This document shows, one piece after another, positions 4,462 through 18,261 of a stretch of DNA of 64,000 bases (positions are counted from its first letter, which is position 1; each line of letters starts with the position of its first letter). The stretch is from Escherichia coli (GTDB lineage Bacteria > Pseudomonadota > Gammaproteobacteria > Enterobacterales > Enterobacteriaceae), in the NCBI RefSeq assembly GCF_003334785.1, contig NZ_QOWV01000001.1. One strand, 5' to 3'. The translations under genes were made by a program, and so were the position numbers. The notes beneath the pieces were generated by a model. The model worked only from the letters and a program-made list of their open reading frames with translations, ran no database searches and was not told where the DNA came from.

Positions 4462-4766
4462 TTCAGGCGCTTCGCGAAGTATGTCGCGGCCTTTTGGAGG
4501 ATAGCCAGCTCTTCATCCCGTTCTGCCAGCTGGCGTTTGAGACGTGCAATCTCGGTAGACATCTCCAGTTCACGTTCAGAAGACGTCTGCTGATTTTGCT
4601 GTTTACTGCGCCAGTTGTAGAGTTGTGATTCATACAGGCTGAGTTCACGGGCTGCGGCAGTAACACCGATGCGTTCAGCAAGCTTCAGGGCTTCACTGCG
4701 AAATTCAGGCGAATGCTGTTTACGGGGTTTTTTACTGGTTGATACTGTTTTTGTCATGTGAGTCAC
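4458..4766 (-). CDS. insE: IS3 transposase OrfA (InsE), helix-turn-helix / leucine-zipper
   Basis: 102-aa ORF ([35 protein letters not shown]...); A-AAA-G slippery motif (ccaaaag on minus strand, plus ~4491-4497) near its 3' end, the established IS3 -1 frameshift site. Confidence 0.9.
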
Positions 4767-6280: not shown

Positions 6281-6903
6281 CCCGGTGTGTGCAATATACG
6301 AAAAAAAAGCCCGTACTTTCGTACGAGCTCTTCTTTAAATATGGCGGTGAGGGGGGGATTGACTCGCTTCGCTCGCCCTGCGGGCAGCCCGCTCACTGCG
6401 TTCACGGTCTGTCCAACTGGCTGTCGCCAGTTGTCGAACCCCGGTCGGGGCTTCTCATCCCCCCGGTGTGTGCAATATACGAAAAAAAAGCCCGTACTTT
6501 CGTACGAGCTCTTCTTTAAATATGGCGGTGAGGGGGGGATTGACTCGCTTCGCTCGCCCTGCGGGCAGCCCGCTCACTGCGTTCACGGTCTGTCCAACTG
6601 GCTGTCGCCAGTTGTCGAACCCCGGTCGGGGCTTCTCATCCCCCCGGTGTGTGCAATATACGAAAAAAAAGCCCGTACTTTCGTACGAGCTCTTCTTTAA
6701 ATATGGCGGTGAGGGGGGGATTGACTCGCTTCGCTCGCCCTGCGGGCAGCCCGCTCACTGCGTTCACGGTCTGTCCAACTGGCTGTCGCCAGTTGTCGAA
6801 CCCCGGTCGGGGCTTCTCATCCCCCCGGTGTGTGCAATATACGAAAAAAAAGCCCGTACTTTCGTACGAGCTCTTCTTTAAATATGGCGGTGAGGGGGGG
6901 ATT
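6281..6903. repeat. Tandem direct repeat array: three perfect 181-bp units (starts 6281, 6462, 6643) plus a fourth partial unit running into the serX 3' end
   Basis: Identical text recurs with 181-bp period; each unit holds a copy of the last 19 nt of serX (plus strand tggcggtgagggggggatt) and the adjacent hairpin plus A/T-run terminator. Confidence 0.95.
6843..6876 (-). terminator. Rho-independent terminator immediately downstream of serX (copied in each repeat unit)
   Basis: On the tRNA strand: short spacer after CCA, hairpin (gctcgtac gaaa gtacgggc), then a run of 8 T. Confidence 0.75.
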
Positions 6904-14280: not shown

Positions 14281-15045
<765 letters not shown>

Positions 15046-15139
15046 GTTTCTGAACAACTCACGTTGCTGAGCAGAAAAATGCGATTTAACCAAAAAGCCT
15101 GCTGTACACTTAAGAAACAAGAAGGTGTAAGGAGGCGTT

Positions 15140-15673
15140 ATGAAAACGCGTATTCATGTTGTGCAGGGTGATATTACCAAACTGGCCGTTGATGTGATTG
15201 TGAATGCGGCTAATCCGTCATTAATGGGAGGCGGCGGCGTCGATGGGGCCATTCATCGCGCAGCGGGTCCGGCCCTGCTGGATGCTTGTTTAAAAGTCAG
15301 GCAACAGCAGGGCGATTGCCCTACGGGGCATGCCGTTATTACGCTTGCAGGCGATCTTCCCGCTAAAGCCGTAGTGCACACCGTCGGGCCAGTCTGGCGT
15401 GGTGGTGAACAAAACGAAGACCAGCTTTTGCAGGATGCCTATCTCAATAGCCTACGACTGGTGGCGGCAAACAGCTATACGTCAGTGGCTTTTCCTGCAA
15501 TCAGTACTGGGGTTTATGGTTACCCTCGTGCGGCAGCGGCTGAAATCGCAGTAAAAACCGTTTCAGAATTTATTACCCGTCACGCTTTACCCGAACAGGT
15601 ATACTTTGTCTGTTATGATGAAGAAAACGCCCACCTCTACGAAAGACTCCTTACCCAACAAGGAGATGAATGA
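15140..15673 (+). CDS. ymdB: Macrodomain protein YmdB (O-acetyl-ADP-ribose deacetylase)
   Basis: 177-aa [46 protein letters not shown]... (macrodomain signature). Confidence 0.93.
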
Positions 15674-15674
15674 T

Positions 15675-17096
15675 TTGCCCCGGCTGGCGAGCGCGGTGCT
15701 GCCACTGTGTTCGCAACATCCCGGTCAGTGTGGCCTTTTTCCTCTGGAGAAAAGTCTGGATGCGTTTGCCGCCCGGTATCGTCTGGCCGAAATGGCAGAG
15801 CATACGCTCGATGTTCAGTATTACATCTGGCAGGACGATATGTCGGGTCGGTTACTGTTTTCCGCCCTGTTAGCCGCAGCAAAGCGTGGCGTTCGCGTCC
15901 GTTTGTTGCTGGACGACAACAATACGCCCGGACTTGACGACATTTTACGCTTGCTTGACAGTCATCCACGCATTGAAGTCCGGCTTTTTAATCCTTTCTC
16001 GTTTCGCTTGCTGCGTCCGCTTGGTTATATCACCGACTTTTCCCGTCTTAATCGCCGTATGCACAATAAAAGTTTCACTGTCGATGGCGTGGTGACCCTG
16101 GTGGGAGGACGAAATATTGGTGATGCCTATTTTGGAGCAGGGGAGGAGCCACTTTTTTCGGATTTAGATGTCATGGCAATAGGACCCGTGGTAGAGGACG
16201 TTGCCGATGATTTCGCCCGCTACTGGTATTGCAAATCGGTTTCACCCTTACAGCAGGTGCTGGATGTCCCGGAGGGTGAAATGGCGGATCGCATCGAGTT
16301 ACCCGCCTCCTGGCATAACGATGCCATGACGCATCGTTATTTACGCAAAATGGAATCCAGTCCATTTATAAATCATCTGGTTGATGGAACATTGCCGCTT
16401 ATCTGGGCGAAGACACGTTTATTAAGTGATGATCCGGCGAAAGGGGAGGGCAAGGCAAAACGGCATTCACTGTTACCGCAGCGCCTGTTCGATATCATGG
16501 GCTCACCCAGTGAACGCATCGATATTATCTCTTCCTATTTTGTACCGACACGCGCAGGTGTGGCGCAACTCTTACGGATGGTGAGAAAAGGGGTAAAGAT
16601 TGCGATCCTAACCAATTCTCTTGCCGCTAACGATGTTGCTGTCGTCCATGCCGGATACGCGCGCTGGCGCAAAAAATTGCTCCGCTATGGCGTGGAATTA
16701 TATGAACTCAAGCCGACGCGTGAACAAAGTAGTACGTTACACGATCGCGGCATAACCGGTAATTCCGGAGCCAGCCTGCATGCTAAAACCTTTAGCATCG
16801 ATGGTAAAACGGTGTTTATCGGCTCTTTCAATTTCGATCCGCGTTCAACATTGCTCAATACTGAAATGGGCTTCGTGATAGAGAGCGAAACGCTGGCACA
16901 GTTAATTGATAAACGCTTTATTCAGAGCCAGTATGATGCGGCCTGGCAGCTCCGTCTGGACAGGTGGGGACGGATCAACTGGGTTGATCGTCATGCAAAG
17001 AAAGAGATTATTCTCAAAAAAGAACCCGCCACCAGTTTCTGGAAGCGGGTTATGGTCAGACTGGCGTCGATATTGCCCGTGGAATGGTTATTGTAA
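15675..17096 (+). CDS. clsC: Cardiolipin synthase C (phospholipase D family, two HKD motifs)
   Basis: Large ORF in a different frame from ymdB; HxK(x)4D motifs (HNKSF..., HAKTFSIDGK...). Start placed at TTG 15675 (473 aa; AGGAG 9 nt upstream); in-frame ATG at 15666 is an alternative (476 aa). Confidence 0.85.
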   Translation: MPRLASAVLPLCSQHPGQCGLFPLEKSLDAFAARYRLAEMAEHTLDVQYYIWQDDMSGRLLFSALLAAAKRGVRVRLLLDDNNTPGLDDILRLLDSHPRIEVRLFNPFSFRLLRPLGYITDFSRLNRRMHNKSFTVDGVVTLVGGRNIGDAYFGAGEEPLFSDLDVMAIGPVVEDVADDFARYWYCKSVSPLQQVLDVPEGEMADRIELPASWHNDAMTHRYLRKMESSPFINHLVDGTLPLIWAKTRLLSDDPAKGEGKAKRHSLLPQRLFDIMGSPSERIDIISSYFVPTRAGVAQLLRMVRKGVKIAILTNSLAANDVAVVHAGYARWRKKLLRYGVELYELKPTREQSSTLHDRGITGNSGASLHAKTFSIDGKTVFIGSFNFDPRSTLLNTEMGFVIESETLAQLIDKRFIQSQYDAAWQLRLDRWGRINWVDRHAKKEIILKKEPATSFWKRVMVRLASILPVEWLL

Positions 17097-17103
17097 ATGT
17101 GGC

Positions 17104-18261
17104 TTAACGGGCTGGTGCTTTATCGTTCTCACGCTTAACAACCGGTTTACCAGAGAACAAAAACTTCAGTAACGGGATGCGCAAATGAATTTCATACAGA
17201 ATTATCGCAATCCCTACTACAAATATCAGGCCACAGAGAAAACCAAGCCAGTTGGAGGTGATGTGCGGTGTAATGTATGCGCCGAAAAACAGCGTTAACG
17301 GGTGGTGAACCAGATAGATAAACAGCGATGCGTTAACAAAATAAGTCACCCGCGCTGACTGGAAGTTAAGCAAACGGTGGCCAAAGGAGAAGACCACATT
17401 CACCATCCACAGACCGAGGACCATGGTGATCACCGACTCGGTTTCGTACATCCAGGCATCGCCACTGCCATAGCGCTGGTTGAGTAAATAAGCGACAAAC
17501 GCCAATGCTGCTGCAAGGGTACAGCCACGAGACGGCGTGGTAAACAAGGCTTTAAGATGAGGGAAAATGAAAGCCAGTGCGCCGAGGATAAAGAACGGCA
17601 AATAAAACAGCGTTTGCATGACAATAAAATTGAACATGCCATTACTCAGAATGGGCGGATACACAATAAAAATCGTTCTTCTTATTACCGCATAACCGAT
17701 GCCGAGGCATAAAAAAATCACCGATAGTTTTACCATCGAGAATTTTTTATTCGTTTTATCAGAATTTTCTAAATTATTTCTGATGCGCTTAAATATCCAT
17801 ACGCACAGCGTCGTCATGACCACTAACACCAGTAAAAACCACAGGTGTGATATTAATTCCCAGGCCAACGTATTATATTTGTCATACAATGACAGCCCAG
17901 GCCAACTTTCCGCTTTTCCTTTGACATATTGCAGCATAATAAATTGCGGTAATGTCAGTAGGGGGATGGCTGTTAACATCGGGATACCTACACGTTCGAC
18001 ACGTACTTTCCACCATTTTTTCAAGGGATAGCGTAAAAAAAGCATGTAGGAAAAGTAGCCGGATATAACGAAAAATACCTGCATGCGGAACGAGTGGATG
18101 AAGTCATTAAAAAGGGTCAGCCACAATGATGATTCGGCGCTATTCACATGCCATGTATGGCTCGAATAGATTAAAGAAATATGAAAAGGTATCCCTAACA
18201 ACATCAGCCAGGCGCGGATGGAGTCGAGGAAATATTCACGTTGCGCGGGTACTGGGTTCAT
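17104..18261 (-). CDS. opgC: Osmoregulated periplasmic glucan succinyltransferase OpgC (MdoC), membrane acyltransferase
   Basis: 385-aa hydrophobic ORF convergent with clsC, divergent from opgGH. Confidence 0.92.

Follow-up and report, generated by a model that had tools for sequence, protein, structure and literature searches.

Translational coupling between neighbouring genes is efficient when the stop and start codons are a short distance apart and the Shine-Dalgarno (SD) sequence lies within the upstream gene, and three overlap spacings, -8, -4 and -1 nt, are enriched in prokaryotes. Coupling has been described for trpE-trpD and trpB-trpA (Brown & Wade 2025, PMC12548453), which, like ymdB-clsC of Escherichia coli, are same-strand operon neighbours with a stop and a start codon within a few nucleotides of each other, and in which, as for clsC, the SD sits within the coding sequence of the upstream gene and the downstream gene is weak alone. 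For the operon status of ymdAB-clsC, the source is the title of Kim & Kim 2017. One published passage states that clsC clones containing ymdB yield more ClsC 'by an unknown mechanism'; as late as 2020, a paper regarded ClsC and YmdB as forming a complex, and the title of Sawasato & Bogdanov 2024 (PMC11678504) states that the ymdB product is not required. Two simple explanations in cis are available at the junction: translational coupling, or a ClsC N-terminus encoded within ymdB. The start codon of clsC bears on the poor production of ClsC from clones without ymdB, and its choice determines which ClsC protein is cloned, tagged, modelled and named.

The window analysed is a 64,000-nt stretch of E. 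coli DNA, to which all coordinates refer. Aligned to the MG1655 genome (NC_000913.3) from position 1090681, it differs by 14 substitutions and one extra A (at approximately 30544-30552); the window is E. coli K-12, and no differences from MG1655 are present within 15000-17200. The ymdB coding sequence (15140..15673, plus strand; ORF list and mapped MG1655 annotation) encodes a 177-aa macrodomain O-acetyl-ADP-ribose deacetylase and ends with a TGA at 15671-15673. After a gap of 1 nt on the same strand, clsC in its curated MG1655 form (15675..17096, plus strand) begins with a TTG and encodes a protein of 473 aa and 53.7 kDa. ClsC possesses both HxK(x)4D motifs expected of a phospholipase D-type cardiolipin synthase, HNKSFTVD (16062-16085, residues 130-137) and HAKTFSID (16779-16802, residues 369-376), and PF13091 (PLDc_2) is on record for its homologues. 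Among the NCBIfam profiles, hits to the ClsA and ClsB models did not reach the cut-offs and no model specific to ClsC scored, and so the N-terminus of the family could not be placed by profile; no Rfam family was found at the ymdB/clsC junction. The ClsC N-terminus (…LPLC) was also judged by eye as a possible lipoprotein or signal peptide and rejected, given that the residue preceding the Cys does not fit a lipobox and that the Citrobacter protein reads M-TRL directly.

All possible initiation signals for clsC fall within ymdB or a single base past it. Positions 15660-15677 read AAGGAG ATG AAT GA T TTG, in which the SD (AAGGAG, 15660..15665, plus strand; AGGAG core at 15661-15665) is formed from the YmdB Gln-Gly-Asp codons CAA GGA GAT. 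Its duplex with the 16S tail is worth -8.5 kcal/mol, a strength equalled or exceeded in 13 of the 67 genes of the window (top fifth). The proximal candidate, TTG (15675..15677, plus strand; 473 aa), is in the clsC frame 1 nt past the ymdB stop (TGAtTTG), at +2 from that stop and 9 nt after the SD; with a gap of 8-9 nt it has the layout of a canonical SD-directed start and is the only candidate with a well-spaced SD. The in-frame ATG at 15666..15668 (plus strand; 476 aa) is formed from the YmdB Asp176-Glu177 codons GAT GAA and overlaps ymdB by 8 nt (ATGAATGA). Both positions, +2 and -8, are close enough to the stop for a coupled pair, whereas no nucleotide separates AGGAG from ATG 15666, where an SD would be placed 5-10 nt upstream. 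Further inside ymdB, the codons for YmdB Tyr159-Asp160-Glu161 (TAT GAT GAA) provide a double ATG at 15615..15620 (plus strand; ATG 15615 and 15618, 493 and 492 aa, 60 and 57 nt upstream of TTG), and the best SD duplex of ATG 15615 is -3.8 kcal/mol at a 13-nt gap. The first possible start in the open frame, a TTG at 15606..15608 (plus strand; 496 aa), is preceded at 4 nt by a weak SD-like CAGGU and is otherwise without support. The initial annotation located the ymdB stop, ATG 15666, TTG 15675 and the SD correctly; its framing of the start as a choice between these two codons was too narrow, as it missed TTG 15606 and, more importantly, ATG 15615/15618, which is used by the automated annotation pipeline of NCBI (PGAP) and has comparative support.

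The best explanation, with a probability of roughly 40%, is that TTG 15675 is the main proximal clsC start and relies on translation of ymdB in cis. The AAGGAG within the YmdB codons would direct initiation at TTG 15675, which would be used mostly by ribosomes fresh from ymdB translation rather than by free 30S subunits. On terminating at the TGA, a ribosome would stand 1 nt from the TTG and would already have melted a predicted hairpin between CUCCUU and the SD, such that the same ribosome, or a 30S subunit recruited at that moment, could start ClsC. In E. coli the older start shared across the family, ATG 15615/15618, remains intact and probably yields some 493-aa ClsC too. Coupling at TTG 15675 could account, in a way that can be tested, for the higher ClsC levels seen with ymdB.

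The predicted CUCCUU/AAGGAG hairpin (15647..15665, plus strand; 6 bp, 7-nt loop, -5.1 kcal/mol alone) would sequester the SD and appears in all MFE folds tried, with overall z-scores of only -1.1 to -2.6. No conservation of the hairpin was found outside E. coli, Lelliottia and Enterobacter ENT03, and it was therefore dropped as a conserved regulatory element and is treated as a minor E. coli-specific feature. A second predicted hairpin of 12 bp (15687..15714, plus strand; -18.1 kcal/mol) begins 12 nt past the TTG and adds to the cost of opening the ribosome-binding region at the TTG, which is computed at 17.7 kcal/mol (64th of the 67 window genes). On these folding models, a hairpin of -18 kcal/mol at +12 should hinder initiation at the TTG. 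Computed opening energy is a poor predictor: the costliest gene of the window, grxB, still shows a strong TIS peak.

Published maps from cell-free INRI-seq (five replicates) and in vivo Ribo-RET were consulted for initiation at the junction. The TIS peak of ymdB is strong, at 150-320 CPM in vitro and 51 in vivo. The initial annotation had named such maps as a check on its choice, and they did not bear it out: the clsC TTG registered 0 CPM in 5/5 INRI-seq replicates despite an abundant transcript fragment (316 CPM), clsC registered 0 in Ribo-RET, and ATG 15666 (-9) showed no INRI-seq peak, although in-frame -9 sites do appear for other genes in the same table. The clsC fragment in INRI-seq extends from -30 to +153, and ATG 15615 falls outside this coverage. 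An abundant clsC fragment without a TIS signal, set against a strong ymdB, is the pattern expected of a coupling-dependent start; however, INRI-seq misses approximately 30% of annotated starts, which makes the clsC negative a weak one. In retapamulin or Onc112 profiling, coupled starts may be scarce after ribosomes have cleared the upstream gene. Neither the TRAINSPOTTER supplementary files nor those accompanying a riboproteogenomics study of N-terminal proteoforms list clsC, and neither ymdB nor clsC is mentioned in the main text of Meydan 2019. With no footprint in INRI-seq or Ribo-RET and no N-terminal peptide in the proteoform supplements, TTG 15675 does not rank as an experimentally verified start.

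Within E. coli, the SD, ATG 15666, TGA and TTG are unchanged in all junctions examined (eight other records, locus L003 and the window), and the 51-mer at 15645-15695 has an exact match in 3789 of 5424 genomes. Variation at the junction lies mostly downstream of the TTG, along with a single ACC to ACT substitution in the loop of the hairpin, and does not discriminate between the starts. Across close relatives, five Citrobacter species have ATG at the codon aligned to TTG 15675, and C. sedlakii and the metagenome contig L091 have TTG there. The layout of a stop, 1 nt and a start recurs as TGAtATG in four Citrobacter and as TGAgTTG in C. sedlakii and L091, and C. werkmanii has an ATGA junction and upstream in-frame stops that make the proximal start its sole start. 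L091 has an in-frame TGA at -33, and its Leu171 codon, CTG, shuts the frame and occurs together with a proximal TTG. The aligned codon is TTA in E. albertii (two assemblies) and CTG in a Pluralibacter, where clsC is intact; a non-start Leu codon in an intact gene implies that another start must work in those close relatives. The preference of the initial annotation for TTG is thus upheld by the curated start, the only well-spaced SD and the aligned ATG in five Citrobacter, and is weakened by the missing TIS peak and the TTA of E. albertii. Start conservation, which it had also proposed as a check, is divided: a start aligned to the TTG is found in close relatives, but the E. albertii and Pluralibacter codons do not follow it, and 23 of 24 orthologues have an ATG between -54 and -66.

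A close rival, itself tentative, is that ATG 15615/15618 is the principal or only start, with the first 20 residues of ClsC (493/492 aa) encoded by the 3' end of ymdB in another frame. TTG 15675 would then be an internal Leu codon and AAGGAG plain YmdB coding sequence, the TTA of E. albertii and the CTG of Pluralibacter would be synonymous, and clones without ymdB would produce a truncated or poorly initiated enzyme. Identical DNA has given rise to three database proteins, of 473, 476 and 493 aa. TTG 15675 (473 aa) is the curated start in MG1655 and UniProt, whereas PGAP uses ATG 15615 in 8/8 other E. coli records inspected, one of them a K-12 derivative, and the 493-aa product is found on at least 1000 contigs. 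This conflict is an ordinary annotation problem of a kind already known, and the choice made by PGAP is algorithmic, not experimental.

Comparative evidence for the 493-aa product comes from the clsC frame over the last 22 ymdB codons, which bears an ATG and is free of stops in 22 of 24 enterobacterial orthologues, against 6.2-6.6 expected from synonymous randomisation, although the orthologues are related to each other and the effect rests on two sites, Leu171 and Tyr159. The Tyr159 codon is TAT in 17/17 Tyr-bearing orthologues read from alignments. At YmdB Leu171 (CTT in the window, 15650..15652, plus strand), Leu codons besides CTT and CTC put a stop in the clsC frame, and this residue is encoded by CTT or CTC in 22 of 23 orthologues (approximately 21% expected), the CTG of L091 being the sole exception. 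The 493-aa model therefore has a conserved overlapping frame, in the sense of a start and a stop-free frame beyond expectation. Six loci (Lelliottia, Leclercia, Enterobacter ENT03, Superficieibacter, Intestinirhabdus and L093) lack any in-frame ATG, GTG or TTG from -42 to +45 and conserve the downstream T-R-L motif with synonymous variation, which indicates that the start there must be upstream. For Enterobacter-type junctions, a non-canonical start at an ACG or ACA past the stop was considered and set aside as implausible. ClsC orthologues without an upstream ymdB carry a tail of 7-16 aa ahead of the T-R-L motif, a further point for the 493-aa product. A protein search with the N-terminal 122 aa of ClsC returned mainly truncated or frameshifted fragments; beyond these it led to three additional loci and to another E. 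albertii-type contig.

Set against a start at ATG 15615 are its lack of an SD, its position inside a well-translated ORF, and the closed upstream frames of C. werkmanii and L091, which rely on the proximal start. Synonymous variation of ymdB is not significantly reduced in the overlap, where normalised codon entropy is 0.668 compared with 0.762 elsewhere (Mann-Whitney p = 0.23). A fuller version of the argument holds that the true N-terminus of ClsC lies approximately 60 nt inside ymdB, that an out-of-frame overlap of approximately 55-70 nt has been selected across Enterobacteriaceae (anti-stop and pro-ATG), and that the long-reported need for YmdB in full ClsC activity arises from clsC-only constructs built on the 473-aa model, which lack the native start and tail; this is rather unlikely. 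Points counted against TTG 15675 include the codons of E. albertii and Pluralibacter, the signs of selection in the upstream frame, the PGAP start, the weak and non-conserved SD hairpin, and the hairpin at +12.

It is improbable that clsC starts instead at ATG 15666 (476 aa), which ribosomes terminating 5 nt further on, at the ymdB stop, would use without the help of an SD, in the manner of a classic -8 overlap. In favour of this reading, ATG initiates far more strongly than TTG, the arrangement (ATGAATGA, equivalent to NTGNNTGA) has a spacing enriched in overlapping gene pairs and shares its geometry with opgG/opgH, the codon has the lowest computed opening cost among the candidates (5.8 kcal/mol), and the 476-aa form is annotated on 72 contigs. 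Its equivalent is kept in L092, in E. albertii and Pluralibacter, both of which lack the TTG, and in L091, with its closed far-upstream frame. However, zero spacing rules out SD-directed initiation, the -9 peak is missing from INRI-seq, and the ATG arises incidentally where the common Asp codon GAT precedes a Glu codon and is absent from C. sedlakii (GAC), while the ATG of Citrobacter lies at -18, unlike that of E. coli. Least probable of all is that TTG 15675 is an independent SD-directed start whose tight spacing to ymdB reflects genome compaction and no coupling: the SD is strong and properly spaced, and the opgH, flgJ and yceM junctions of the window give their own TIS peaks in vitro, but the isolated fragment with SD and TTG formed no initiation complexes in any replicate despite its abundance, and ymdB in cis is reported, in the passage quoted above, to raise ClsC levels.

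The other non-ATG starts and tight junctions listed in the initial annotation agree with MG1655. The GTG starts of grxB (33375, minus strand), yceM (36127), flgI (45595) and fabF (61260) have INRI-seq peaks in 5/5 replicates, and that of fabF is also seen in vivo; the TTG of plsX (56942) has no TIS peak and is backed by homology. A further GTG start, that of yceQ (53823), was missing from the list and has no TIS peak, and the yceH/yceM junction (TAAaGTG), also missing, has the same 1-nt gap as ymdB/clsC. The confirmed junctions are opgG/opgH (8-nt overlap), flgI/flgJ (1-nt overlap), insE/insF (ATGA) and pabC/mltG (2-nt gap), and the spacing makes translational coupling a reasonable suggestion for them. 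For insE/insF, which contains an A AAA G motif at 4495-4491, -1 frameshifting is the main known route to the transposase. Non-ATG starts make up 7 of the 69 annotated in the window (10%), compared with approximately 12% genome-wide, and the non-ATG starts and overlaps of the window are typical of E. coli, with nothing beyond chance or the norm.

Compared with the trp-type pairs, ymdB-clsC differs in its spacing of +1 (TGAtTTG), rather than -4, -1 or -8, unless the start is ATG 15666, and in its TTG start codon. In MS2 coat-lysis and rpmI-rplT, a hairpin covering the ribosome-binding site is opened by ribosomes of the upstream gene, as proposed for clsC, but the clsC hairpin has only 6 bp and -5.1 kcal/mol, is statistically ordinary and is not conserved in relatives. 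The opgG/opgH pair (ATGAATAA) has the same 8-nt overlap as ATG 15666 and the ymdB stop, and no obvious SD; unlike clsC, opgH has an independent TIS peak in vitro in 5/5 replicates. Long out-of-frame overlaps (>30 nt) are rare in prokaryotes, and the 493-aa clsC model requires one of 59 nt in E. coli and approximately 55-70 nt in other genera, an overlap that persists through several enterobacterial genera and in which apparently only frame openness and the ATG are selected, the overlap peptide not being conserved beyond the coding constraint of YmdB. The comEB-comEC pair of Bacillus subtilis, as described in a preprint (bioRxiv 10.1101/2020.12.30.424838), involves other genes in another organism, and for ymdB the published passage concerns presence in cis. 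In that pair the upstream protein is dispensable, whereas translation of its ORF is needed for the downstream membrane-associated protein, whose suboptimal ribosome-binding site lies within the upstream gene, the logic at which the 2024 ClsC title hints and which is proposed here for ymdB-clsC.

The ymdB/clsC junction (15660-15677) reads AAGGAG ATG AAT GA T TTG, and the TGA stop of ymdB (15140-15673; stop 15671-15673) lies between two candidates in the clsC frame, ATG 15666 (476 aa) and TTG 15675 (473 aa), as the initial annotation had described with correct coordinates, overlap, spacing and product length. ATG 15666 overlaps ymdB by 8 nt with zero spacing to AGGAG, and TTG 15675 lies 1 nt past the ymdB stop and 9 nt past AGGAG. 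The earlier preference for TTG is supported in part: it agrees with the curated MG1655 start (NP_415564.2), but no initiation peak was found at this codon and a third candidate was overlooked, as the clsC frame is stop-free back to TTG 15606 and includes ATG 15615 and ATG 15618. PGAP places the start at the equivalent of ATG 15615 (493 aa, 59-nt overlap with ymdB) in all eight other E. coli records opened, among them one K-12 derivative and one divergent strain (91% identity over a 241-nt junction query), and public collections contain 473-, 476- and 493-aa products of identical DNA. The ambiguity is therefore three-way, and is a genuine conflict between curated and automated annotation.

Reviews report more ClsC from clsC clones that include ymdB, 'by an unknown mechanism', and list this as an open question; others state that ClsC activity depends on ymdB, or refer to a ClsC-YmdB complex, and the title of a 2024 paper states that the ymdB product is not required. 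Two explanations in cis may be proposed: clsC initiation would be coupled to ymdB translation, or the N-terminus of ClsC would be encoded inside ymdB. A TTG start with coupling to ymdB translation is tentatively favoured, with a probability of roughly 0.4. The Shine-Dalgarno (SD) duplex of TTG is predicted at -8.5 kcal/mol with a gap of 8-9 nt, a strength that only 13 of 67 window genes equal or exceed. CUCCUU (15647-15652) is paired with AAGGAG in all predicted folds, but this hairpin reaches only -5.1 kcal/mol and is not conserved, and the folds are not unusual relative to shuffles. A predicted 12-bp hairpin of -18.1 kcal/mol (15687-15714) begins 12 nt past TTG; it falls within clsC codons 5-14, immediately beyond what a ribosome initiating at TTG would cover. 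The junction region has no match in Rfam.

Conservation of the candidate starts was compared in 22 ymdB-clsC junctions taken from a collection with one genome per species, plus four obtained via protein look-ups, with offsets counted from the TTG-aligned codon. Three groups emerge: the proximal start is the only or main one in five Citrobacter, C. sedlakii and contig L091, TTG is lost in a second group, and a third has no proximal start. No one start is conserved family-wide. The aligned codon is ATG in five Citrobacter, as TGAtATG in four and as ATGA in C. werkmanii, where in-frame stops upstream leave the proximal start as the only option. C. sedlakii, without an ATG at -9, and L091, whose frame is interrupted by a TGA at -33, both have TTG. 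Every E. coli junction read has the SD, ATG, TGA and TTG unchanged, and so population data do not discriminate between the starts.

Initiation at the upstream ATG, which has no SD at 15615, is a serious but somewhat less probable alternative. Lelliottia, Leclercia, Enterobacter ENT03, Superficieibacter, Intestinirhabdus and contig L093 have no in-frame ATG, GTG or TTG from -42 to +45, and the T-R-L-G-R-A motif just downstream is conserved in these six loci with synonymous changes, so that they must initiate at ATGs at -54 to -66. When synonymous codons were randomised with each YmdB protein kept, ~20% of cases were expected to lack a stop in the clsC frame across the final 22 codons of ymdB. 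Among 24 orthologues, 22 have this frame open and carrying an ATG, versus 6.6 expected, and the other two are precisely those bound to the proximal start. The signal derives chiefly from one codon, Leu171: 22 of 23 orthologues use CTT or CTC, and any other Leu codon would create a stop in the clsC frame. The start site adds a second signal, as Tyr159 is TAT in 17 of 17 Tyr-bearing orthologues and creates the upstream ATG; because the orthologues are related, these counts should be read as suggestive, not as probabilities. Synonymous diversity across the overlap shows no overall reduction (p = 0.23), suggesting that only the openness of the frame, and not the overlapping peptide, is constrained. 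In Intestinirhabdus alba, the ymdB match is limited to residues 113-177 with an in-frame stop near the end (…LLT*RDDE), clsC is intact and the codon aligned to TTG is CCG; clsC appears to survive there with a decayed ymdB and an upstream ATG only.

Initiation at ATG 15666 is unlikely. E. albertii (two independent assemblies) and a Pluralibacter have replaced TTG with TTA and CTG, respectively, and retain the ATG at -9 together with the far-upstream ATG. INRI-seq, a cell-free retapamulin footprinting of synthetic fragments that cover -30 to +153 of each MG1655 gene, lists in-frame -9 sites for other genes but none for clsC. An uncoupled TTG start is less probable still: the clsC fragment is abundant (316 CPM) and includes AAGGAG, ATG 15666 and TTG, and the annotated start gave 0 CPM in five of five replicates, the sole signal being at a CTG at +69, below threshold and seen in one replicate. 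The fragment stops short of ATG 15615, and the negative result is weak because the method finds ~70% of annotated starts. In vivo Ribo-RET signal for clsC is likewise 0, and ymdB gives 150-320 CPM in vitro and 51 in vivo. Supplementary data of published start and N-terminus surveys contained no N-terminal proteomic support for any clsC start.

The window is E. coli K-12 DNA: NC_000913.3 from 1090681 aligns with the whole 64 kb end to end, with 14 substitutions, a single-A insertion in a poly-A tract upstream of dinI, and no difference within 15000-17200. Gene coordinates were transferred from MG1655. The differences (2219, 6438, 6478, 7161, 8714, 13033, 19361, 20296, 26251, 30544-30552, 31014, 33159, 33415, 35428 and 57065) look like private changes or source-sequence errors. 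By bit-score arithmetic, no exact match to the first 24 kb exists among 5426 complete E. coli genomes, with ~7 mismatches to the top genome and ~9 to MG1655-like strains. A perfect tandem repeat between ycdU and serX (6281-6903; 181-nt unit, 3.4 copies) has no feature in the MG1655 table. A frameshifted clsC is annotated in two complete E. coli genomes, O145 RM8843-C1 and NCTC11151, the latter missing one C from the CCCC run directly after TTG; the frameshifts reflect either a dispensable clsC or errors of assembly.

The remaining non-ATG starts (GTG in grxB, yceM, flgI and fabF; TTG in plsX) and tight junctions (opgG/opgH, 8-nt overlap; flgI/flgJ, 1-nt overlap; insE/insF, ATGA; pabC/mltG, 2-nt gap) listed by the initial annotation agree with the curated record, which adds yceQ (GTG) and the yceH/yceM junction (TAAaGTG). 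The four GTG starts have INRI-seq peaks in five of five replicates, with an in vivo peak at fabF as well. plsX is expressed, yet its TTG (56942-56944) gives no peak in either INRI-seq or in vivo Ribo-RET, so that neither of the window's TTG starts gives a signal in these assays; homology supports the plsX start, with residues 2-4 of the solved PlsX proteins 1VI1, 6A1K and 1U7N aligned to residues 4-5 of the E. coli protein, ahead of the next ATG. The GTG of yceQ, a putative gene (53823-54143) in the rne upstream region, has no peak in vitro or in vivo. Independent in vitro peaks are present at opgH (20183), flgJ (46692) and yceM (36127), and mltG (63433), like clsC, has none; reliance on the upstream gene is not predictable from junction tightness alone. 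An A AAA G motif (4491-4495, minus strand) lies ~30 nt upstream of the insE/insF overlap, and IS3 transposase is produced by -1 frameshifting, suggesting that ATGA coupling is not the main route to functional transposase.

The clsC start bears on both annotation and the ymdB-ClsC puzzle. Non-ATG starts make up 7 of 69 (10%) in the window, ~88% of E. coli starts being ATG, and prokaryotic overlaps are enriched at spacings of -8, -4 and -1 nt, so that the starts and overlaps were reported accurately and are ordinary for E. coli. Non-ATG starts, short overlaps, coupling and alternative starts are well-known kinds of feature, and the genes concerned are already characterised.
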